Shown here: in pieces, positions 35,690 to 46,091 of the stretch
Position numbering within the stretch: position 1 is the stretch's first letter
How the letters are laid out: each line of letters opens with the position of its first letter
Assembly (NCBI GenBank): GCA_902615845.1
Contig: CACMQS010000010.1
Span: forward strand, 682-64,681
Direction of reading: 5' to 3'
DNA length: 64,000 bases
From: an uncultured Alphaproteobacteria bacterium
Lineage (GTDB): Bacteria; Pseudomonadota; Alphaproteobacteria; HIMB59; GCA-002718135
Notes under the pieces: model-generated
Told to the model about the DNA's origin: nothing
Seen by the model: only the letters and a program-made list of their open reading frames with translations
Databases searched by the model: none
Made by a program: the position numbers and the translations under genes

Positions 35690-36321
35690 TATAATATTCC
35701 GAAGAAACCTTTTTTATTTAGTTTTTCTTCGCATTGTTTTAGTTGTTTATTAAACATCTTAGTATTTCTTTCTACATTTTTAGCAACATCAATCAACCAA
35801 TCTTTACTTTTAAATGTCTCTTTCGACCATCCATTTTGACCTTCATGGTATGCTAAATATTGATTATAGTAATCATTTTTTGAAATTCCAATCATATTTT
35901 CGGACTGCGTTGTGTACCATCCAATAAAATCAGTTACATCTTTAAAATTTGCCCTTGATGCATTTTGATTTCCAGTTTTATTCTTATACCAATCCCATGT
36001 AGGATTTGTTATTTGTGCATAACCAAAAGCAGTTGATGGTCTAGATGTTGGTATTAAACCTAAAAATTTTTTTCTTTTCGGTTTTGCAAATTGAGTAAAA
36101 GATGATTCTTGTTTTATAACTGCTAATTGGAATGCAATTGGGGTATTCCATTTATCATAAGAATCTTTAGTTGCTTTATACCAGCTTTTCTTTTCATTAA
36201 AAATTATGCAACTATCAGCAGTATTTGTTAACTGATTTGAAGTACATGCATATAAAAATAACAACGCAATACATAATAATTTTAAAAAAATATCAAATTT
36301 CATTATAAATCTGAATATCAT
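35689..36321 (-). CDS. Transglycosylase SLT-domain lipoprotein
   Basis: Lipobox LYAC, catalytic QESSF, AFGYAQ, YLAYHEG. Confidence 0.78.
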   Translation of the reverse strand: MIFRFIMKFDIFLKLLCIALLFLYACTSNQLTNTADSCIIFNEKKSWYKATKDSYDKWNTPIAFQLAVIKQESSFTQFAKPKRKKFLGLIPTSRPSTAFGYAQITNPTWDWYKNKTGNQNASRANFKDVTDFIGWYTTQSENMIGISKNDYYNQYLAYHEGQNGWSKETFKSKDWLIDVAKNVERNTKMFNKQLKQCEEKLNKKGFFGIL

Positions 36322-36370
36322 AACTTTTACTTATATAGTCTTAAATGTGGCAAAAAATTATTGCTTACTA

Positions 36371-36397
36371 TTGAATTATAGATATGAATGCTTAAAT
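36371..36397 (+). promoter_or_regulatory. Possible RpoH-like promoter for htpG
   Basis: TTGAA-N15-CTTAAAT ending 7 nt before the htpG ATG. Imperfect match in AT-rich DNA. Confidence 0.25.
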
Positions 36398-36404
36398 TTC
36401 AAAA

Positions 36405-38264
36405 ATGGCAGAAAAAACTAAAGAAAATTTAACATTTCAGGCTGAAGTCAGTAAGCTTTTAGATCTTGTTGCTAATTCTCTTTATAGTGAAAGAGAAATA
36501 TTTTTAAGAGAATTAATATCTAATTCTGCAGATGCCTGCGAAAAATTAAGATATCAATCACTCTCCAAAAAAAACCTTCTTAAAGATGAAAAGGATTTAA
36601 AAATAAATATCAGAGTTTCAAAAAAGAAAAAAATTATTGAAATTGAAGATAATGGAATTGGAATGTCTAAAAATGAACTGATTGACAATTTAGGAACTAT
36701 AGCGAGATCAGGAACTAATAAATTTATTGAAGCAATGAAAAATAAAAAGAGTAATGATATTTCCGCAATTGGACAGTTTGGTGTTGGTTTTTATTCCTCA
36801 TATATGGTTGCAGATAATGTTGAAGTGCTTTCTAAAGATGCTGAAAATGAAGAAACAAATCTTTGGTCTTCCAATGGAAAAGAAAATTATACCATAGAAG
36901 ATGCTAAAAAAGATAAAAGAGGCACTTGTATAACTCTAAATATAAAGAAAGATGCAGATGAATTTTTAGATTCATTTCGTTTAAGATCAATTATAACAAA
37001 ATACTCAAATTATATTCCTTTTCCAATTTATCTTAAGGATCTTGACGATAAAGAAAAAGAAGAAAAAATAAATGAAGGTAGCCCATTATGGTTAAAAGAT
37101 AAAAAAGATATAAAAGAAGAGGATTATAAGCAATTTTATAATAATATTTCATTTAATTTTGATGATCCCTTAAAAACTATTCATTATAACGCTGAGGGTG
37201 TTATTAGTTATAAGGCTTTACTTTATTTTCCTACAAATCAACCTATGGATTTATTCAATGCTGATAGGAAAAATAAAATAAAATTATATGTACAAAAAGT
37301 TTTTATCACTGATGATTGTGAAGAAATAATTCCTAATTGGTTACGTTTTATTCCAGGAGTAGTCGACTCACAAGATATTTCTCTCAATATAAGTAGAGAA
37401 ATGCTTCAAAATAATCCCATTATTACAAAAATAAAAAAAGGTATTACAAATAAAATTTTAAGTGAAATTGATAGTTTAGCTAAGAAAGAAAAGGATAAAT
37501 TTGAAACATTTTGGAACAATTTTGGTCCTGTTCTAAAAGAAGGGTTATACGAACATAATGATCATCATGAAAAAATTCTTCCAATATTAAGGTTTGAAAA
37601 TTCTTTAAATGATAAAAAAATATCTCTTGAAGAGTACACTAAATTAATGGCTAAAGATCAAAAAGAAATTTATTATTTTGCTAATACTGATAAGGATCAT
37701 ATTAAAAACTCCCCTCAATTAGAAGTTTTCACTGATAAAAAGATACCAGTTTTGTTTATGGTTGATGCAGTAGATGAGTTTTGGATTCAAAATGTAAATA
37801 AATTTAAAGATTTAGAATTTAAATCAATAACCAAAGGTAAGGTTGATGTTTCAAAAGTTGGTGAAAAATCTAGTAAAAAAGACGAAGATAAAAAAGAAAT
37901 AGATAGTAAAATCAATGATTTAATTAACATACTTAAAACAGAGTTAAAGGAAACTATATCTGATGTTATTGTATCTAATAGATTAACCAAAAGCCCAATT
38001 CTGCTTGTTGCCGAAGAAGCCGGGATGGATATAAATATGGAAAAATTGATGAAAATGCATAATCAAAAAACTCCTGTTTCAAAAAAGATACTTGAAATTA
38101 ATCCAAACCATCCAATGATTGTAAATTTATCTCAAAATTTAACAAAAATTGATCATAAAAAAGCTTCAAATTTAATTTTAGATCATGCTAATATATTAGA
38201 TGGTAACATTCTCTCAAATCCATCTGCTTACTTAGAAAATTTAACTGAAATTTTTATTAAGTAA
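36405..38264 (+). CDS. htpG: Hsp90 chaperone HtpG
   Basis: FLRELISN, DNGIGM, GQFGVGFYS and LNISRE motifs. Confidence 0.97.
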   Translation: MAEKTKENLTFQAEVSKLLDLVANSLYSEREIFLRELISNSADACEKLRYQSLSKKNLLKDEKDLKINIRVSKKKKIIEIEDNGIGMSKNELIDNLGTIARSGTNKFIEAMKNKKSNDISAIGQFGVGFYSSYMVADNVEVLSKDAENEETNLWSSNGKENYTIEDAKKDKRGTCITLNIKKDADEFLDSFRLRSIITKYSNYIPFPIYLKDLDDKEKEEKINEGSPLWLKDKKDIKEEDYKQFYNNISFNFDDPLKTIHYNAEGVISYKALLYFPTNQPMDLFNADRKNKIKLYVQKVFITDDCEEIIPNWLRFIPGVVDSQDISLNISREMLQNNPIITKIKKGITNKILSEIDSLAKKEKDKFETFWNNFGPVLKEGLYEHNDHHEKILPILRFENSLNDKKISLEEYTKLMAKDQKEIYYFANTDKDHIKNSPQLEVFTDKKIPVLFMVDAVDEFWIQNVNKFKDLEFKSITKGKVDVSKVGEKSSKKDEDKKEIDSKINDLINILKTELKETISDVIVSNRLTKSPILLVAEEAGMDINMEKLMKMHNQKTPVSKKILEINPNHPMIVNLSQNLTKIDHKKASNLILDHANILDGNILSNPSAYLENLTEIFIK

Positions 38265-39195
38265 CTGAATTTATAATTTTATTATTATTAAAGAATTCAA
38301 CAAACTGATTAGCAACCATTTCTGCTACAACTATTTGTGCTTCATCAGTAGAAGCAGCAATATGTGGAGTTAAAATTATATTATCTAAATTATAAAACCC
38401 ACTTTCTTCTAAAGGCTCATTTTTAAAAACATCTAATGCAGCGCCTTTAATTTCTTTTTTTTCTAGAGCATTTTTAAGATCATCTTCATCAACTAAGTTA
38501 CCTCTAGCGGTATTGATAATTATGCAATTTTTTTTCATTAGTGATAGATGATTTTTATTCATAATCGGATTTCCATCTTTATTAGGTTTACAATGAAAAG
38601 AAATTATATCTGAATCATTAATAATATCATCGATAGAAGAAGAATTATATTCAGGATAGCTATCCTTAATTGTTTCAAAGTATGAAGAAAATATTGAAAC
38701 GTGCATTCCTAATACTTTAGATATTTCTGCAACTCTTTTGCCTACATTACCAAAACCTACGATACCAATTTTCTTGCCTTTAATTTCGTTTCCTTTTAAT
38801 TTCTTTTTTTCCCAAAGACCCTTATGAGTTGTCTCATTGGCAACAGTAATTTTTCTTTGTAATGCAAAAATTAAACCAATTGTGTGTTCTGCTGTAGCAT
38901 TTGTATTTCCTCCTGGAGTATTCATTACGATAATATTTTTATTTTTAGCAGCTTCCACATCAACATTATCTACTCCTGCTCCTGCCCTACCTATAATCTT
39001 CAAATTTGAAAGAGAATCAATTAAATCTTTTCGCACTTTAGTTGCAGAACGAATAATTAAACCATCATAGTTATCGATTATTTTTTTTAATTCTTCAGAA
39101 GATAAGTTTGTTTTTGTATCAACTGAAATGTTATTCTTTATTAAAATTTCAGATGCAATATTATCTAGTGAATCTGATATTAATACTTTAGGCAT
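38257..39195 (-). CDS. serA: D-3-phosphoglycerate dehydrogenase, short form without ACT domain
   Basis: IRSATKV, GRAGAGVDNVD, NTPGGN, GFGNVG, NTARG and TPHIAAST motifs. Coupled to serC; start refined from 39228. Confidence 0.85.
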   Translation of the reverse strand: MPKVLISDSLDNIASEILIKNNISVDTKTNLSSEELKKIIDNYDGLIIRSATKVRKDLIDSLSNLKIIGRAGAGVDNVDVEAAKNKNIIVMNTPGGNTNATAEHTIGLIFALQRKITVANETTHKGLWEKKKLKGNEIKGKKIGIVGFGNVGKRVAEISKVLGMHVSIFSSYFETIKDSYPEYNSSSIDDIINDSDIISFHCKPNKDGNPIMNKNHLSLMKKNCIIINTARGNLVDEDDLKNALEKKEIKGAALDVFKNEPLEESGFYNLDNIILTPHIAASTDEAQIVVAEMVANQFVEFFNNNKIINSVT

Positions 39196-40351
39196 ATTTA
39201 GATTTAATTTCTGAATAAGCCCAATCAATCCAAGGTAAAACTAATTCTACATCTGAAGTTCGAACCGTACCCCCGGCCCATATTCTAAAAGAAGGTGGTG
39301 CTTTAGGATATCCATTACAATCAAATCCAACATTATTATCAGAGAGTAATTTACATATATCAGCCATTACAGCTCTTTGACCGTTTTCATCTTTATTAAT
39401 AAACCAGTCTTCAATAATTTTAAAAGTTATTCCGGTGTTTGAGATATAATTATCATCTTTAATTTCAGATAAAAAGGTGACCCAATCTCTCTCATTAATC
39501 CATTCTCTAATTTTTTGTAAAGAATTCTGGGATTTAGAAATTAATGAATCTAACCCTCCTTGAGAAGAGACCCAATTTAATGAATCAATGATATCTTCAA
39601 CACATATCATTGAAGGTGTGTTAATTGTGTTTCCTTCAAAAATTCCTTTTATCAATTTTTGGTTTTCAGCTAATCTAAATAATTTTGGTACTGGCCAACT
39701 AGGTGTAAAACTTTCTAATCTTTCTACAACGCGTGGAGAAATTGCAATCATTCCATGAGCGGCCTCTCCTCCAAGTATTTTTTGCCATGACCAAGTTATA
39801 ACATCACATTTATTATAATCTATAGGCATACCAAAGATTGCCGAAGTAGCATCACAAATGGTTAGACCTTTTCTATCATCAGGTATCCAATCTCCATTTG
39901 GAACTTTGACACCAGATGTTGTTCCATTCCAAGTAAAAATAACGTCATTATCAAAATTGACTTTGCTTAGGTCAGGTAGTTTCCCATAATCTTCTTCATG
40001 AATATTTAAATTATCTAATTTTAATTCGCTGATTGCATCGATTACCCAATCTTTACCAAAATTTTCCCATGCAAGAATATCGACTCCCGTTTTACCTAAT
40101 AGGCACCACATAGCAGCTTCTAAAGCACCAGTATTTGATCCAGGCATGATACCCAATAAATAATCATCGGGTAATTTAAGAATATCTTTAGATTTATCTA
40201 TTGCTTCTTTTAATCTTGCTTTACATTCAACAGATCTGTGAGATCTACCAGTTAAAGCATTACTCAAAACAGATATGTCCCAGCCTGGTCTTTTTGAAGT
40301 TGGTCCACTTGAAAAATTTGGATTGTTAGGTTTAGTATTAGGTTTATTCAT
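39188..40351 (-). CDS. serC: Phosphoserine aminotransferase (alphaproteobacterial/Methanosarcina type)
   Basis: NFSSGP, GRSHRS, WNGTTSGV, DATSA, SWQK and NTPSM motifs. Confidence 0.93.
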   Translation of the reverse strand: MNKPNTKPNNPNFSSGPTSKRPGWDISVLSNALTGRSHRSVECKARLKEAIDKSKDILKLPDDYLLGIMPGSNTGALEAAMWCLLGKTGVDILAWENFGKDWVIDAISELKLDNLNIHEEDYGKLPDLSKVNFDNDVIFTWNGTTSGVKVPNGDWIPDDRKGLTICDATSAIFGMPIDYNKCDVITWSWQKILGGEAAHGMIAISPRVVERLESFTPSWPVPKLFRLAENQKLIKGIFEGNTINTPSMICVEDIIDSLNWVSSQGGLDSLISKSQNSLQKIREWINERDWVTFLSEIKDDNYISNTGITFKIIEDWFINKDENGQRAVMADICKLLSDNNVGFDCNGYPKAPPSFRIWAGGTVRTSDVELVLPWIDWAYSEIKSKYA

Positions 40352-41562
40352 ACATTTTTTTCAAACTCATAAACTACTAAGCCATCTAAAGGTTTTGGAT
40401 CAAACCAAGTTGATTTAGGGGGCATAGTCAAATTTTTATTCGCGACTGTAATAACATCACTTATTGAAGATGGGAAGATAGAAAATGCCACACTGTCATT
40501 ATTTTCATCAACTTTTTTTTCTAAAGCTTCCAAACCATGACATCCGGCAATAAATCTTATTCTTTCATCATTATTAACATCAGATATATTTAAATGTTTT
40601 TTGAAAATGAAATTGTTTAAAATATTAATATCTAGTGTATCAACAAAATTATCAGTTTTTAATTCACTTTTAAAATACAATGAATACCACTTTTTTTCAT
40701 GATACATTCCAAATTGTTTATTTGTTTGAGGTTTAAATGGATTTTTTTCATTTTTTATTTCGAAGTTTTCAGAAAGAATGTCTAAAAACTTTTCTTCAGT
40801 CAAACCATTTAAATCTTTAACAACTCTATTATAATCAAATATTTTAGCCTCATCAGTTGGAAACGCCGCTATCATAAAATCTTCTTGTAAAATATTTTTA
40901 TTATAATTTAATTCACCAATAATTTTCATTGCACCCATTCTATGATGTCCATCTGCAATATAAAAATTATCTACTTCATTTAAAAAAACAGAAGATAAGT
41001 TTTCGATAAAAGATTGATCAGAAATACACCATAGTTTGTGAATAGATTTATCGAAACTTTCAAAATCATAGTCTGGAGTATTTGATATAATTGAGGATAA
41101 CAAATTTTTTATCTTATTATTTTTTTTATATACTACATAGATAGGACCGATTTGTGTTTTTATATTTAACATTTGCTCTGCTCTTTCTCTCATCCTTGAC
41201 TCGTATATTTTTTCATGCGCTTTAATTTTTTCTTCTTCAAAATCTGAGATTTTAGAAAGGGATAAAAATCCTAGTTGAGTATGGCCTTGAAATTCAATTT
41301 GATAAATATAATAAAATAATTCTTTATCTTTTTTAATTACATCATTTTCTTTCATTTCATTAAAATGCGATTTTGCTTCTAAAAGAGTATCTGCTTCTTT
41401 TAATTGTCCAACGGGATTCAAAATTTTTAAATAATTCCAATAATTATTTTTTTTAAATATTTCTATATTTTCAATACTTAAATGATCAGTTGAAGGAGCA
41501 ATTAAATTTTTTGCATCTTCATTGTAAGGACGTGTTCCTTTGAAAGGTTTAATTTCAACCAT
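40348..41562 (-). CDS. DUF1015 family protein (ParB/Srx-like core)
   Basis: MVEIKPFKG, HE, YIADGHHR, YNRVV and MPPKSTWFDPK motifs. Confidence 0.88.
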   Translation of the reverse strand: MVEIKPFKGTRPYNEDAKNLIAPSTDHLSIENIEIFKKNNYWNYLKILNPVGQLKEADTLLEAKSHFNEMKENDVIKKDKELFYYIYQIEFQGHTQLGFLSLSKISDFEEEKIKAHEKIYESRMRERAEQMLNIKTQIGPIYVVYKKNNKIKNLLSSIISNTPDYDFESFDKSIHKLWCISDQSFIENLSSVFLNEVDNFYIADGHHRMGAMKIIGELNYNKNILQEDFMIAAFPTDEAKIFDYNRVVKDLNGLTEEKFLDILSENFEIKNEKNPFKPQTNKQFGMYHEKKWYSLYFKSELKTDNFVDTLDINILNNFIFKKHLNISDVNNDERIRFIAGCHGLEALEKKVDENNDSVAFSIFPSSISDVITVANKNLTMPPKSTWFDPKPLDGLVVYEFEKNV

Positions 41563-41608
41563 AATAAAGAAACACCTTTAATTAAATAAAAAAAAATTTA
41601 AACTTAAA

Positions 41609-42973
41609 TTACGCTACTTCTGGTATTTGAGAAATAGATTTACCTATTCCATCATCATCAATAACATCATCAGCCATTGATCCATTTAGATAATCATCAT
41701 AAGCTGACATATCAAAATATCCATGACCACATAAATTAAAGAGAATAGTTTTTGACTCGCCTTTTTCTTTACATTCTAAAGCTGCATCAATAGCACCTTT
41801 GATTGCGTGATTTCCTTCTGGAGCAGGAATTATTCCTTCTTGTTTTGCAAAAGTTAAACCAGCTTCAAAACAATCTTTTTGACCGTAGGCCTTTGCTCTC
41901 ATCAGACCTAACTCATATAAGTGGCTTAAATGATAAGACATGCCATGGTATCTTAGTCCGCCAGAATGATTAGCAGGTGGTAAGAAATCAGATCCAAGAG
42001 TATGCATTTTAATTAATGGGGTCATTTTTGCCATATCACCATGATCATAAGCATACTTACCCTTAGTAAATGAAGGACATGATGCAGGCTCGCAACCAAT
42101 TATATCAATTTTTTGACCACCTCTTAACTGTTGTCCTAAAAATGGAAACATTAATCCAGAAAGATTACTGCCGCCACCTGTACAGCCAACAATTATATCA
42201 GGATAATCTCCAGCCATCTCCATTTGCATAATGGCTTCATTACCATTTATAGTTTGATGCATTAAAACATGACCTAAAACACTTCCAAGTGAGTATTTTG
42301 CTTTTCCTCCGCTTTTAACAGTTGCTTCTATTGCTTCTGATATAGCTATTCCCAAACTACCAGGGTTATCAGGATTTTCTGATAATAACTTGTTACCGAA
42401 ATCAGTTAAATTAGATGGGCTAGCGTGACAGTTAGCGCCGAATGATTGCATCATTAATTTTCTGTAAGGTTTATGATCAAAACTAACCTTAACCATGAAA
42501 ACTTCTATATCTATACCAAAGATCTGACCTGCAAAAGCTAATGAACTTCCCCACTGACCTGCGCCCGTTTCAGTAAATATTTTACTAATTCCTTCTTCTT
42601 TATTAAAAAATGCTTGTGGGACTGCAGTATTTGGTTTGTGACTTCCTGTAGGACTAACACCTTCATATTTGTAATAAATTTTAGCTGGTGTATCTAAAAA
42701 CTTTTCTAATCTTCTTGCTCTAAATAAAGGAGAAGGTCGCCATTGTTTGTATACTTCTCTTACTGGCTCAGGAATTTCTATTTCTCTTTCAGTAGAAACT
42801 TCTTGCATAATTAAACTCATTGGAAATAAAGGAGCAAAGTCATCAGGACCAGCTGGTTGTTTAGTTCCAGGATGTAATGGTGGTGGTGGTGGACTTGGTA
42901 AGTCTGCATTAATATTATACCAAAACTTTGGTGCTTTATTTTCTTCAAGTAAGTATTTAATTGAGTCGCTCAT
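41609..42973 (-). CDS. trpB2: Tryptophan synthase beta-like protein, TrpB2 type (stand-alone)
   Basis: WYNINADLP..PPPPLHP N-extension, GSHKPNTA, TETGAGQWG, GGGSN and GGLRYHG motifs. No trpA adjacent. Confidence 0.93.
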   Translation of the reverse strand: MSDSIKYLLEENKAPKFWYNINADLPSPPPPPLHPGTKQPAGPDDFAPLFPMSLIMQEVSTEREIEIPEPVREVYKQWRPSPLFRARRLEKFLDTPAKIYYKYEGVSPTGSHKPNTAVPQAFFNKEEGISKIFTETGAGQWGSSLAFAGQIFGIDIEVFMVKVSFDHKPYRKLMMQSFGANCHASPSNLTDFGNKLLSENPDNPGSLGIAISEAIEATVKSGGKAKYSLGSVLGHVLMHQTINGNEAIMQMEMAGDYPDIIVGCTGGGSNLSGLMFPFLGQQLRGGQKIDIIGCEPASCPSFTKGKYAYDHGDMAKMTPLIKMHTLGSDFLPPANHSGGLRYHGMSYHLSHLYELGLMRAKAYGQKDCFEAGLTFAKQEGIIPAPEGNHAIKGAIDAALECKEKGESKTILFNLCGHGYFDMSAYDDYLNGSMADDVIDDDGIGKSISQIPEVA

Positions 42974-43071
42974 AATAAAAGTATATTGGACTATAAAAAA
43001 TTAAATTTCAACCATAAATGAAATACTTTAACTTCAAAAATGTGTCTATTTTTATTGCTGTTTTATTAGTA

Positions 43072-43989
43072 TTATATGTTTTTTACGGATATTTTACTCA
43101 TTGATTTTTTTTGCCCAACAAACAGACCAATAAAAACTAGAATAATTCCGACTACAGAACTAAATACTATTTTTTCAGAAAGAAATATGAATCCCCATAT
43201 TAATGCAAAAACAGGAATTAAATAGGCAACATAAGACAAGAAAACCGGACCAGATTGTTTAACTATATGATAGCGCATATGAAATGCAATAGCTGTTGGA
43301 AAAACACCTAAATAAATAATAGAAATTAAAGATATCATATTAATATTATTCTCATAATTAATAAAATCATAGAATAAAAAAGGTAATGATATTATCGCTC
43401 CAAATAATGTAGCAAAAGTAGTAATCGAAATAGGGCTTAATTTCTTCAATTTATTATAAGCAGCAATATTTGAAATCATATAGCCAAATGCAGCTATAAT
43501 CACAAAAATTTTTGCTAAAGTACTAATGTAGTTTTCATCTTGAAAATTAAATTTAATTATATCTAAAATAAAAATAATACCTATAAAACCTATAATAATT
43601 GATAAAAATTTAACCCAAGTAAACTTATCGTCTGAAGTTAAAACATGAGACATTAGTAATGTTATTAAGGGACCAACCGACATTAATAACCCTGCAGTAG
43701 AAGAAGGAATGTATTGTTCAGCCCAACTAATTAGATAGAATGGTAAAAAATTTCCAGTAATGCCAATAAAAGAAAGAATTAAAACTAAATCGAGATTTAA
43801 TTTAGGATGATTGTTAAATGAATAATATAAAATAATTAAGAAAATTGATGCTATAATTAATCTTAAGGAAGCAATACTTGTAGGTGTAAAACTAGACAGA
43901 CAAATTTTAATAACAAAAAAAGAAGATCCCCAAATTGCAGCTAAAATTATAAGAAGTATTAAATTATTTGATAATAATTTATTAAACAA
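43072..43989 (-). CDS. DMT/EamA family transporter
   Basis: WGSSF, PFYLISWAEQYI and FLSEK motifs. TTG start. Confidence 0.88.
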   Translation of the reverse strand: MFNKLLSNNLILLIILAAIWGSSFFVIKICLSSFTPTSIASLRLIIASIFLIILYYSFNNHPKLNLDLVLILSFIGITGNFLPFYLISWAEQYIPSSTAGLLMSVGPLITLLMSHVLTSDDKFTWVKFLSIIIGFIGIIFILDIIKFNFQDENYISTLAKIFVIIAAFGYMISNIAAYNKLKKLSPISITTFATLFGAIISLPFLFYDFINYENNINMISLISIIYLGVFPTAIAFHMRYHIVKQSGPVFLSYVAYLIPVFALIWGFIFLSEKIVFSSVVGIILVFIGLFVGQKKSMSKISVKNI

Positions 43990-43992
43990 AAA

Positions 43993-44292
43993 TTAGATTT
44001 TATTTTTTGGTTGTGGAATTTCAATATTTTCAGAAGGTTTCATAAATTCATCTCTTCTTCCATCCCAAAGATAATCTGCGTAATCAAATTCAGTAATCAT
44101 TCTATCAGATCGTTCAAATGTTAAACCGTATTTCCTACAATAACTGGCAAATTCTTCTGCATTATCTATTGGTAAATTTTCTACAGTCCATTTTCTAGTA
44201 CTTCTATCGAATTTGAAACCATTTTTTTTGAACCAATCTCTATGATAATATGAATCTCTACCAAAAGCTGAAAAAGTTATTTTCTTCGTCAT
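43993..44292 (-). CDS. Hypothetical protein, 99 aa, aromatic/charged
   Basis: Fills the gap directly upstream of the DMT gene; natural-looking composition; family not recognised. Confidence 0.7.
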   Translation of the reverse strand: MTKKITFSAFGRDSYYHRDWFKKNGFKFDRSTRKWTVENLPIDNAEEFASYCRKYGLTFERSDRMITEFDYADYLWDGRRDEFMKPSENIEIPQPKNKI

Positions 44293-44401
44293 AATGATAT
44301 GCGCTCTTACATGAAAAACTTAGAAATAACAAATTTAATTTTTAAAATTAATTTTATTTAAAATAGTAGAAATCTATTAGTATTTATAATAAGATAATCT
44401 A

Positions 44402-44734
44402 ATGGATCTTTACAGTAGCAGTGAAATTACAGTTCATCAATTAAATGAACTCAAGCAAGATGATAAAAAAATTCAAATTATAGATGTAAGAGAAGATACT
44501 GAGAGAGATCATGCCCATATTAAAGGTACAATACACATGAAGCTTTCAGAGATTGCTAAAAGATACACCGAATTAGATAAGAAAAAAAATATTTTTGTAA
44601 TGTGTCATACCGGAACAAGAAGCCAAGCTGTATGTAAATGGCTTAAAGCACAAGGTTATAATCATTGTGTTAATGTACTTGGCGGAATAGACGCGTGGGC
44701 TGCTTTAATTGACAGAAATATTAGAAGATATTAA
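44402..44734 (+). CDS. Single-domain rhodanese/sulfurtransferase
   Basis: IIDVRE, active-site CHTGTRS, GGIDAW. Confidence 0.9.
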   Translation: MDLYSSSEITVHQLNELKQDDKKIQIIDVREDTERDHAHIKGTIHMKLSEIAKRYTELDKKKNIFVMCHTGTRSQAVCKWLKAQGYNHCVNVLGGIDAWAALIDRNIRRY

Positions 44735-44919
44735 GAAATACTCTCTAAGTACAAACCTAGAAAAATAATAATTACACCAACTAAAAACATTATTATCCTG
44801 AACAGGATTTCAATAAAAAGATTAAATCTTATTCGTTTTTTAATAATTAGTTTGTATAGAGGATTACTAATTGATAAAGAAATTAATAGTATCCCAATAA
44901 TAATAACTAACCAATGCAT
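44731..44919 (-). CDS. Small two-TM membrane protein
   Basis: Two hydrophobic helices with a basic linker; exactly fills the gap. Confidence 0.6.
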   Translation of the reverse strand: MHWLVIIIGILLISLSISNPLYKLIIKKRIRFNLFIEILFRIIMFLVGVIIIFLGLYLESIS

Positions 44920-45591
44920 AAAGTTAAAAAATACATAGCTGAAGATTTAAAATTTTCAAACCAAACTATCAAAGAAATGAAGATTAATTCAAAAAAATTT
45001 TATAATAAAATTAAAGAAAGAAGAAGCATACGTGAATTTTCAAAAGATAAAATCGATATAAATATTATAAAAAATGCGATCTTATCGGCGGGATCAGCTC
45101 CAAGTGGAGCAAATCTTCAACCTTGGCATTTTGTAGTAATAAAAAATAAAAACGTAAAAAAGAAGATTAGAATAGAAGCAGAAAAAGAAGAAGAAAATTT
45201 TTATAAGTACAAAGCTCCTAAAGAATGGTTGGATGCATTAACTCCTTTAGGAACTGATGAAAATAAAAAATTTATTGAAAATGCACCTTATTTAATAGCT
45301 ATATTTGAGAAAAAATTTTCAGTTTCAAAAAATAAGAAAATAAAAAATTATTATGTAAAAGAGTCTGTAGGTATAGCTACTGGTATATTAATTACTTGTT
45401 TACATTTTTCTGGCTTAGTAATGTTAACACACACACCAAGCCCAATGACATTTCTTAATAAAATTTTGAAAAGACCTAGTAATGAAAAACCATTTGTTTT
45501 ACTTATTGTTGGACGACCAGATAAAGATGTTAAAGTTCCAAAGTTTGCAAAACAAAAGAAAAAGTTTGAGGAAATTACTTCAATTTTTTAA
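44914..45591 (+). CDS. Nitroreductase-fold iodotyrosine deiodinase (IYD)-like flavoprotein
   Basis: RRSIREF, APSGANLQPW, lid EEENFY...W..AL.PLGT...K...ENAPYLI, YYVKESVGIA and THTP motifs. Confidence 0.85.
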   Translation: MHKVKKYIAEDLKFSNQTIKEMKINSKKFYNKIKERRSIREFSKDKIDINIIKNAILSAGSAPSGANLQPWHFVVIKNKNVKKKIRIEAEKEEENFYKYKAPKEWLDALTPLGTDENKKFIENAPYLIAIFEKKFSVSKNKKIKNYYVKESVGIATGILITCLHFSGLVMLTHTPSPMTFLNKILKRPSNEKPFVLLIVGRPDKDVKVPKFAKQKKKFEEITSIF

Positions 45592-46091
45592 CCAAGTTCT
45601 TCTGGTTTCATAGTTTCATAAACCTCATAAGGCATATGGATCCAAGGAGAATCTTCTAAATAATCAACATAATAATTTGGTTTAAATGAAGATACTGACT
45701 TATAAAACAAAACTCCAGTTCTTATTGGTTCATCTATATAAAAACCATAAGTATGATTTAACCAATCAATACTTTTTTTAAGAGTAATTCCTGAGTCTGC
45801 TAAATCATCTACTATTAAAACTTTTGATCCAATGTTAGGGCTTGTTTTTGCTAAATCTCTTGAAAATGTGATTGCACCCCTTTTATTTTTTACTCCCTCA
45901 CCTTTATATGACTCAACAGAAAGAATTGCTAAAGGAACATCAAATATTCTTGCCATTACATCCCCTACTCTCATACCTCCTTTTGCGATGCATACAACCT
46001 GATTAAATTGCCATCCATCCTTATGAATTTGTTTTGCTAAATCTTCTGTTTTACTTCTATATTCGTCCCAACTAATGTGTAAATCAGACAT
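45588..46091 (-). CDS. Purine phosphoribosyltransferase (Gpt/Hpt-like)
   Basis: ISWDE, IAKGG, PRPP loop LIVDDLADSGIT, WIHMPYE. Confidence 0.85.
   Translation of the reverse strand: MSDLHISWDEYRSKTEDLAKQIHKDGWQFNQVVCIAKGGMRVGDVMARIFDVPLAILSVESYKGEGVKNKRGAITFSRDLAKTSPNIGSKVLIVDDLADSGITLKKSIDWLNHTYGFYIDEPIRTGVLFYKSVSSFKPNYYVDYLEDSPWIHMPYEVYETMKPEELG

Follow-up and report, generated by a model that had tools for sequence, protein, structure and literature searches.

We analysed a stretch of 64,000 nucleotides from an uncultured alphaproteobacterium (GTDB lineage HIMB59; GCA-002718135), i.e. positions 682 to 64,681 of contig CACMQS010000010.1 in GenBank assembly GCA_902615845.1, hereafter the window. 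Its reverse strand carries a cluster of four genes, trpB2-DUF1015-serC-serA. The best explanation of this cluster, which taken as a whole we consider fairly probable, is a phosphorylated serine pathway that operates without the phosphatase SerB in a streamlined marine alphaproteobacterium. SerA would oxidise 3-phosphoglycerate and SerC would transaminate the product to O-phosphoserine (OPS). The DUF1015 protein, a member of the SerBK family, would interconvert OPS and serine, which GlyA would tie to glycine. TrpB2, a paralog of the tryptophan synthase beta chain of the OPS type, would condense indole with OPS from the same pool, an auxiliary route of indole salvage beside the canonical TrpBA. 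The identities of the genes, the predicted fold, the lack of SerB and the conserved order are results of this analysis; the activities of the enzymes, the flux direction, co-transcription and any gain from the pairing with trpB2 are inferred. The function of DUF1015 as SerBK and the use of OPS by TrpB2 are already known. New is a glycine riboswitch which is situated between trpB2 and DUF1015 in 20 relatives.

The source assembly comprises 1.35 Mb in 34 contigs, is 82.7% complete and has a G+C content of about 27%. Its order comprises 186 species-level genomes in two families, both streamlined (0.7-1.6 Mb). The profiles PF06245 for DUF1015 and NF009057 for TrpB2 were run over all 186 genomes and the coordinates were compared by script. 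Of the 89 genomes of the window's family which hold both genes, 87 have trpB2 immediately upstream of DUF1015 in the same orientation, and this extended over all nine genera. In the remaining two the genes are on different contigs. Because the same order recurred in 87 genomes, the gene arrangement is not due to chance.

The serine genes and the SerBK-type protein

A preliminary description of the window had reported four co-oriented genes, with a gap of 46 nt behind trpB2 and overlaps thereafter. Open reading frames, family profiles and spacing all agreed with this layout (Table 1). DUF1015 and serC overlap by 4 nt, and htpG converges on the cluster from its downstream side. The open reading frame of serA had been called from a TTG (38257-39228, 323 aa), which would overlap serC by 41 nt. 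The ATG at 39195 (MPKVLISD), which overlaps the serC stop by 8 nt, is the more likely start. The serC product scored above the equivalog cut-offs of NF002841 (584 bits, cut-off 477) and TIGR01365 (521 bits, cut-off 448). The serA product contains 2-Hacid_dh_C and 2-Hacid_dh domains. Its top NCBIfam model was 3-phosphoglycerate dehydrogenase (PGDH, TIGR01327, 325 bits), followed by glyoxylate reductase with 209 bits. The TIGR01327 cut-off of 454 was not reached, as the match spans no more than positions 1-308 of 525 and the ACT/ASB part is absent. We filed this short dehydrogenase as SerA-like by family rank and gene context, not as a proven member. A promoter and terminator scan stayed at the level of shuffled sequence (53 promoter-like sites vs 46 expected). 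Fourteen seawater/aquatic metatranscriptome runs contained 31-36% of the sampled words; this was not counted as evidence of expression.

The DUF1015 protein matched PF06245 with 230 bits (cut-off 25.8) over profile positions 1-323 of 325. The DGHHR motif noticed earlier was confirmed as ADGHHR, residues 203-208. In an alignment of 81 sequences, including that of the window, all nine invariant columns were kept (E117, D204, G205, H207, R208, K383, T385, P389 and K390). An AlphaFold model of high confidence was obtained (pLDDT, the predicted local distance difference test, 95; pTM, the predicted template modelling score, 0.92) and compared with the PDB by Foldseek. All nine matches at E ≤ 0.001 were free-serine kinases, either SerK or SbnI (T. 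kodakarensis SerK, a P. furiosus homolog and SbnI), with E-values from 9e-9 to 2e-6 and TM-scores, normalised to the target, of 0.49-0.62. By sequence, the window protein had no match among solved structures at E ≤ 10, and the family profile gave non-significant matches only. A local alignment with the P. furiosus SerK homolog 1vk1 pairs the two invariant motifs of DUF1015 with DGHHR and SPKTT (E 0.34, not significant alone). SerK (T. kodakarensis TK0378; PDB 5x0k and others) and SbnI (S. aureus; PDB 5uje) thus share the fold and a DGHHR-type motif with the DUF1015 protein. They differ in that they are 11-15% identical to it and about 160 residues shorter. SerK uses ADP as a donor and SbnI uses ATP. 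Further, SerK and SbnI catalyse the reaction solely in the direction of OPS, as part of cysteine and staphyloferrin synthesis.

How common is the link of DUF1015 to serine genes? We surveyed 80 DUF1015 loci drawn from one of 64 parts of the genome collection, which as a whole is estimated to contain roughly 41,000 DUF1015 stretches. The sample included L007, a locus from a single-cell genome that is 96% identical to that of the window. A relative of serA and/or serC was present within 8 kb in 25 of the 80 loci. These were mostly from Firmicutes, Bacteroidota and Acidobacteriota, with no Gammaproteobacteria among them. The window protein is about 34-36% identical to the DUF1015 proteins of sampled Clostridium and Bacteroidales and 31% identical to the copy of the sister family.

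The main literature source on this family is GapMind 2026 (PLoS Genet, 12 Nov 2026; also a preprint). There the family was named SerBK. A DUF1015 gene in the serA-serC operon of C. difficile had been put forward as the phosphatase that was lacking (Hofmann et al. 2018, via GapMind 2026). The C. botulinum homolog CBO1128 restores growth of an E. coli serB mutant, and BT1151 of B. thetaiotaomicron is required for growth with L-serine as a nitrogen source. Just three of 50 genomes with close DUF1015 homologs have a good SerB, and the serine kinase SbnI is the top Foldseek match of the family. The authors left open which phosphoryl partner is used and whether flux through a reversed kinase would suffice (GapMind 2026). 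Because the role of SerBK has been published before, it is not this operon that reveals what DUF1015 does, which the preliminary description had thought possible. Its proposal that DUF1015 interconverts serine and OPS, as a kinase or as a substitute for SerB, is supported by a fold match exclusively to SerK and SbnI, the clustering with serC and serA, and the missing SerB. By sequence and predicted fold, the window's DUF1015 protein is a divergent member of the published family. It has in common with the clusters of C. difficile (CDIF630erm_01132), CBO1128 and BT1151 the Pfam family, the association with serA/serC, a genome without SerB, SbnI/SerK as the nearest fold and the invariant motifs DGHHR and PPKST(W). 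Different are the order DUF1015-serC-serA with trpB2 in front and the riboswitch before DUF1015 in the window's relatives. An in vivo role is known for CBO1128 from complementation and for BT1151 from fitness data (GapMind 2026), whereas the window's copy is placed by sequence and predicted fold.

SerB was searched for in the lineage. None of 13 genomes, of which 12 reach 90% completeness or more, had a match above the cut-off of the SerB model TIGR00338; the search did not extend to phosphoserine phosphatases with another fold. A HAD-IB model likewise stayed below its cut-off in five of five lineage genomes. The assembly of the window had no TIGR00338 match at E ≤ 1. The earlier statement that serB and trpA are absent from the window was correct and extends to this whole, incomplete assembly. 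glyA, which links serine and glycine, was found in the lineage. In genus g9 (G130), serA follows DUF1015 directly, with no serC in between.

A glycine riboswitch in relatives and the direction of flux

In four fetched loci of relatives the spacer between trpB2 and DUF1015 contained an Rfam glycine aptamer on the coding strand (37-69 bits, gathering score 32). The search was extended to 115 genomes of the window's family. Of the 87 adjacent pairs, 20 had an aptamer. These comprise 16 in the window's genus, one in g5 (with an additional weak second copy), two in g7 and one in g8. In one further genome it was located just after trpB2 at a contig end. The genomes with an aptamer are exactly those with a long spacer, of which 21 exist in total; the last one (G124) had only a weak match of 26.3 bits to R1, a narrow glycine aptamer model of our own with an effective sequence number of 1.18. 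The window and 66 other short-gap genomes are without an aptamer, as is the sister family. The spacer of the window matched neither Rfam, at E ≤ 1, nor R1. A search for regulatory RNAs over positions 36000-46000 of the window yielded sub-threshold chance matches only. One was a potC RNA match inside the DUF1015 coding region (41227-41297, minus strand), which scored 29.8 bits, short of the gathering score (44), and was taken as chance.

The leaders of the relatives were analysed by an RNAalifold consensus and by constrained partition-function folds. A hairpin 3' of the aptamer is conserved and its inner stem covaries. Presumably it corresponds to the 'ghost aptamer' of singlet glycine riboswitches. 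In 16 leaders, the mean unpaired probability of positions -16 to +3 was 0.55 when the aptamer was enforced and 0.49 when P1 was blocked. The window's genome contains just one glycine riboswitch, and this one precedes gcvT-gcvH. The relatives' aptamers belong to the same class (RF00504), scoring 37-73 bits against the gathering score of 32. Unlike the element before gcvT, they consist of a single aptamer plus the covarying hairpin and precede DUF1015-serC-serA, not glycine-cleavage genes. R1 found no glycine aptamer in 79 DUF1015 loci of other groups, which given the narrow model is a weak negative. Of the 24 serA-linked DUF1015 loci outside the family, 12 were searched with Rfam, and none of these 12 had one.

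The position of the aptamer suggests that in the 20 relatives glycine controls DUF1015-serC-serA as a separate unit, which does not include trpB2. Thus, the four genes do not always form one regulatory unit. The window's sublineage has no aptamer and a spacer of 46 nt, so read-through from trpB2 is likely; there, trpB2 is probably co-transcribed with DUF1015-serC-serA.

The glycine riboswitch directly before DUF1015-serC-serA in the 20 relatives, and the fact that the one in the window's genome precedes a glycine-degradation operon, raise the question whether the cluster mainly runs backwards. GlyA would then convert glycine to serine, SerBK would phosphorylate serine, and SerC and SerA would carry the carbon to 3-phosphoglycerate while TrpB2 taps OPS. 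The glyA gene is at hand. The alpha chain of the Fe-S serine dehydratase was not found in five of five genomes searched, thus another exit for serine would be wanted; however, three other PLP (pyridoxal phosphate)-fold enzymes of about 325 aa are present and could be serine or threonine dehydratases. The requirement of BT1151 for growth on L-serine as a nitrogen source (GapMind 2026) also fits a route that consumes serine. Yet the leader folds did not separate an ON from an OFF switch, and in the OFF case biosynthesis would be repressed by feedback. The window and the other short-gap genomes do without the aptamer altogether. A prototroph that lacks SerB would need some other enzyme to make serine. 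Finally, a T-box leader (126 bits) precedes the serA-DUF1015 pair of a Clostridium locus at a distance of about 1.3 kb. This points to induction of that serine operon by uncharged tRNA and suggests a biosynthetic role there. As the main direction of flux the backward route appears doubtful to us. Nevertheless, it is a serious alternative or a second mode, and it is compatible with the proposed serine pathway if SerBK works both ways.

TrpB2 and its pairing with DUF1015

The first gene of the cluster encodes a TrpB2 above the equivalog cut-offs of NF009057 (701 bits, cut-off 366) and TIGR01415 (607 bits, cut-off 519). Among solved structures, 6hul_B (458 bits) and 4qys_B (389 bits) matched best, and the PLP lysine motif GSHKPN is present. 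Arg341 of the window's protein, in the motif GGLRYHG, aligns with an Asp of the TrpB1 of the lineage (AGLDYPG); four aligned TrpB2 sequences have GGLRYHG, and the solved TrpB2 chains show the same motif. This Asp-to-Arg change is said to have been described by Busch and colleagues in 2014 as a specificity switch for OPS, the Asp of TrpB1 reportedly contacting the side chain of serine. Arg341 and the family-wide adjacency are consistent with OPS as the substrate of the window's TrpB2. That TrpB2 enzymes use O-phospho-L-serine is stated in PMC11917138. Compared with the OPS-dependent TrpB2a of S. solfataricus (PDB 4qys), with which it shares the Arg in GGLRYHG, the window's protein is a bacterial copy that heads a predicted OPS-producing gene cluster.

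Does the lineage depend on TrpB2 for tryptophan? The best match of trpA (PF00290) in the window's assembly had an E-value of 0.032. A TrpB1-like gene of about 403 aa was present in 13 of 24 genomes of the same genus. It adjoins trpA in all four genomes of the genus that were searched for trpA and in one genome of the sister family. trpC was found in 13 of 13 genomes, including the window's own assembly (contig C6). The absence of trpA and trpB1 from this assembly therefore probably reflects missing sequence and not a loss of the genes, and the lineage probably makes tryptophan de novo, judging from its gene content. Because trpC and trpBA are available as well, TrpB2 would be an auxiliary enzyme. 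The usual view of TrpB2 is that of an indole scavenger, which fits such an extra role. In two other alphaproteobacterial genomes a divergent gene for tryptophan 2,3-dioxygenase is located beside trpB2.

The pairing is tight within the family. In several genera the spacer between trpB2 and DUF1015 measures 13-46 nt, and trpB2 remained next to DUF1015 in three genera in which an opposite-strand gene splits off the upstream EamA transporter gene. Two of the 80 surveyed DUF1015 loci adjoin trpB2, the near-identical L007 and L027. The latter belongs to an unrelated genome of 2.7 Mb in which trpB2 directly precedes a DUF1015 whose product is 33% identical to that of the window. In one genome of the family (G125) only the N-terminal half of TrpB2 matches (model positions 3-225), with a gap of about 0.9 kb to DUF1015; this trpB2 may be a decayed gene.

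Several observations weigh against the proposed pathway and its link to TrpB2. The window's DUF1015 protein is 29-39% identical to mainstream family members, far below the band of about 50% that was tested in GapMind 2026, and a kinase reaction run in reverse is thermodynamically unfavourable (GapMind 2026). In the 20 relatives with a riboswitch, trpB2 and DUF1015 are separated by it and would be regulated apart. In the sister family none of 44 genomes has the two genes adjacent, and in the four that have both on one contig they are 128-162 kb apart. This is because orf99-DUF1015-serC-serA forms one block there and EamA-trpB2 lies elsewhere, beside umuDC-like genes; in the window's family EamA-trpB2 sits between orf99 and DUF1015. 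Outside the order, trpB2 adjoins DUF1015 in only one of the 79 other DUF1015 loci. Of 401 sampled alphaproteobacterial genomes 33 have TrpB2. Around TrpB2 in 29 Alphaproteobacteria of other orders the neighbours were heterogeneous, and no relative of serA, serC or DUF1015 was located within 6 kb; two of these genomes have DUF1015, on other contigs. Lastly, TrpB2 was present in only 14 of 49 DUF1015 genomes of other groups (49 genomes scored, from 50 of the 79 loci). A comparison of this figure with the 33 of 401 was dropped and no claim of genome co-occurrence is made, as the samples were not matched. The adjacency is thus a stable feature of the window's family, which arose independently at least once more, and not a general rule.

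The layout in the two families could mean that the adjacency is a historical accident. An EamA-trpB2 cassette would have landed between orf99 and DUF1015 in the family ancestor, and the inertia of a dense, streamlined genome would have preserved it there without any metabolic link. The intact orf99-DUF1015-serC-serA block of the sister family, the insulation of DUF1015-serC-serA from trpB2 by the riboswitch in four genera, and the TrpB2 neighbourhoods of other Alphaproteobacteria, which never include ser genes, all point in this direction. Against this, the pair persisted throughout nine genera despite the split-off of EamA and the shrinking of the spacer, and an independent pair exists in L027. 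Moreover, OPS is both the reported substrate of TrpB2 and the product of the neighbouring genes. An accident is conceivable, though we think it rather unlikely; a coupling of TrpB2 and SerBK through OPS is plausible from the gene context.

A further-reaching version of the proposed pathway would make OPS, not serine, the hub of the cluster, with TrpB2 as an irreversible, phosphate-releasing exit that a kinase-type SerBK cannot offer. With SerBK as a kinase, the formation of tryptophan from indole by TrpB2 would be an ATP-driven indole trap. Water as a nucleophile on the aminoacrylate intermediate of TrpB2 could return serine, and the glycine riboswitch of the relatives would set the SerBK-SerC-SerA arm as a drain or a source. 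We give this combination little credence. If true, it would ease the thermodynamic puzzle that serine synthesis via a reversed kinase posed to the authors of GapMind 2026. Least credible of all is a ParB/Srx-fold nucleotide- or nucleic-acid-binding protein outside serine metabolism, e.g. a DndB-like protein or a regulator, which would draw on the DGHHR signature of the ParB/Srx superfamily and a weak DndB match (20 bits, below the cut-off of 29.1), since the fold matched serine kinases only, DUF1015 overlaps serC, serine genes are nearby in 25 of 80 loci and a family member complements serB (GapMind 2026).

Neighbouring genes and meaning for the lineage

Upstream of trpB2 is a gene for a transporter of the EamA/DMT family. 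It is kept there in the genomes of the family and is found upstream of trpB2 in both families of the order. Among the 29 other alphaproteobacterial TrpB2 loci, an EamA gene was, by Pfam, directly upstream on the same strand in two. As these transporters are only about 22% identical to each other, we do not put EamA forward as a conserved partner of TrpB2 and give the finding as an observation. The transporter is probably a neighbour, not an obligate member of the operon. The opposite-strand gene that intervenes between EamA and trpB2 in three genera encodes a double-rhodanese protein. In the window, a gene for a single-domain rhodanese is located just upstream of orf99.

The small gene orf99 had no Pfam match at E ≤ 0.01 and no Atlas match. 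With phmmer it was detected at 143-224 bits in eight of nine family loci and in L007; it was not seen in L089, where the available stretch ends about 1 kb upstream of trpB2. The copy of the sister family (85 bits) is directly before DUF1015. The protein has an internal repeat-like motif, K..GFKF....KW.

Table 1. Coordinates of the gene cluster, its neighbours and the comparison features. Positions without a prefix are those of the window; L and G numbers denote other loci and genomes.
Feature	Position	Strand	Remarks
trpB2	41609..42973	-	454 aa; TrpB-like PLP enzyme, TrpB2 subgroup; first gene of cluster
Spacer trpB2/DUF1015	41563..41608	-	46 nt, AT-rich; without riboswitch
DUF1015, SerBK-type	40348..41562	-	404 aa; predicted free-serine kinase fold, predicted SerB substitute
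serC	39188..40351	-	387 aa; phosphoserine transaminase, serC_2 type
serA (short)	38257..39195	-	312 aa from ATG 39195; 3-phosphoglycerate-dehydrogenase type, without ACT domain
EamA/DMT-family transporter	43072..43989	-	PF00892, 142 bits; upstream of trpB2
orf99	43993..44292	-	99 aa, no known family; precedes serine cluster in both families
Single-domain rhodanese gene	44402-44734	+	just upstream of orf99
Glycine aptamer	L090 7334-7419	-	Rfam
Glycine aptamer	L091 7307-7393	-	Rfam
Glycine aptamer	L095 6938-7023	-	Rfam
Glycine aptamer	L093 6910-6997	-	Rfam
Glycine riboswitch before gcvT-gcvH	L148 1501-1586; G000:C1:67448-67533	+	window's genome
T-box leader	L069 5553-5758	+	Clostridium
DUF1015 followed by serA, genus g9	L092 5437-7591 (G130)		no serC in between
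N-terminal half of TrpB2	G125:C36:36810-37478		
trpA with TrpB1-like gene	G022:C1:264232-266049		example
EamA comparison gene	L097 8323-9234		upstream of trpB2
EamA comparison gene	L105 1625-2521		upstream of trpB2
EamA comparison gene	L106 7477-8493		upstream of trpB2
Double-rhodanese gene	L087 5195-6034	-	between EamA and trpB2
Double-rhodanese gene	L093 8460-9290	+	between EamA and trpB2
orf99, sister family	L096 7412-7714		directly before DUF1015
Tryptophan 2,3-dioxygenase gene	L115 4857-5753	-	divergent beside trpB2
Tryptophan 2,3-dioxygenase gene	L128 4874-5902	-	divergent beside trpB2

In the library of papers searched, we found none that connects trpB2 with a serBK cluster or describes a glycine riboswitch at serBK. 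GapMind 2026 contains no occurrence of TrpB2, 'tryptophan synthase' or SAR11, and its sole mention of a glycine riboswitch concerns glyXS-glyXL. Apart from the riboswitch in the relatives, this analysis adds the contrast between the window's family and its sister family and the evidence for a canonical tryptophan pathway. The results extend a family that was described in 2024-2026 and do not overturn current knowledge. The pairing with trpB2 is the first hint from genomic context we found that an OPS-dependent TrpB2 may draw on the serine pathway in vivo. With the glycine riboswitch before serBK-serC-serA there is a direct handle on the direction in which SerBK works. The findings also bear on how such organisms are scored. 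A survey of 135 Pelagibacter genomes speaks of 'partial pathways'. Many abundant streamlined ocean bacteria are scored as dependent on serine or glycine when pipelines see serA and serC and no serB. With SerBK recognised in the lineage, this call shifts to probable prototrophy.

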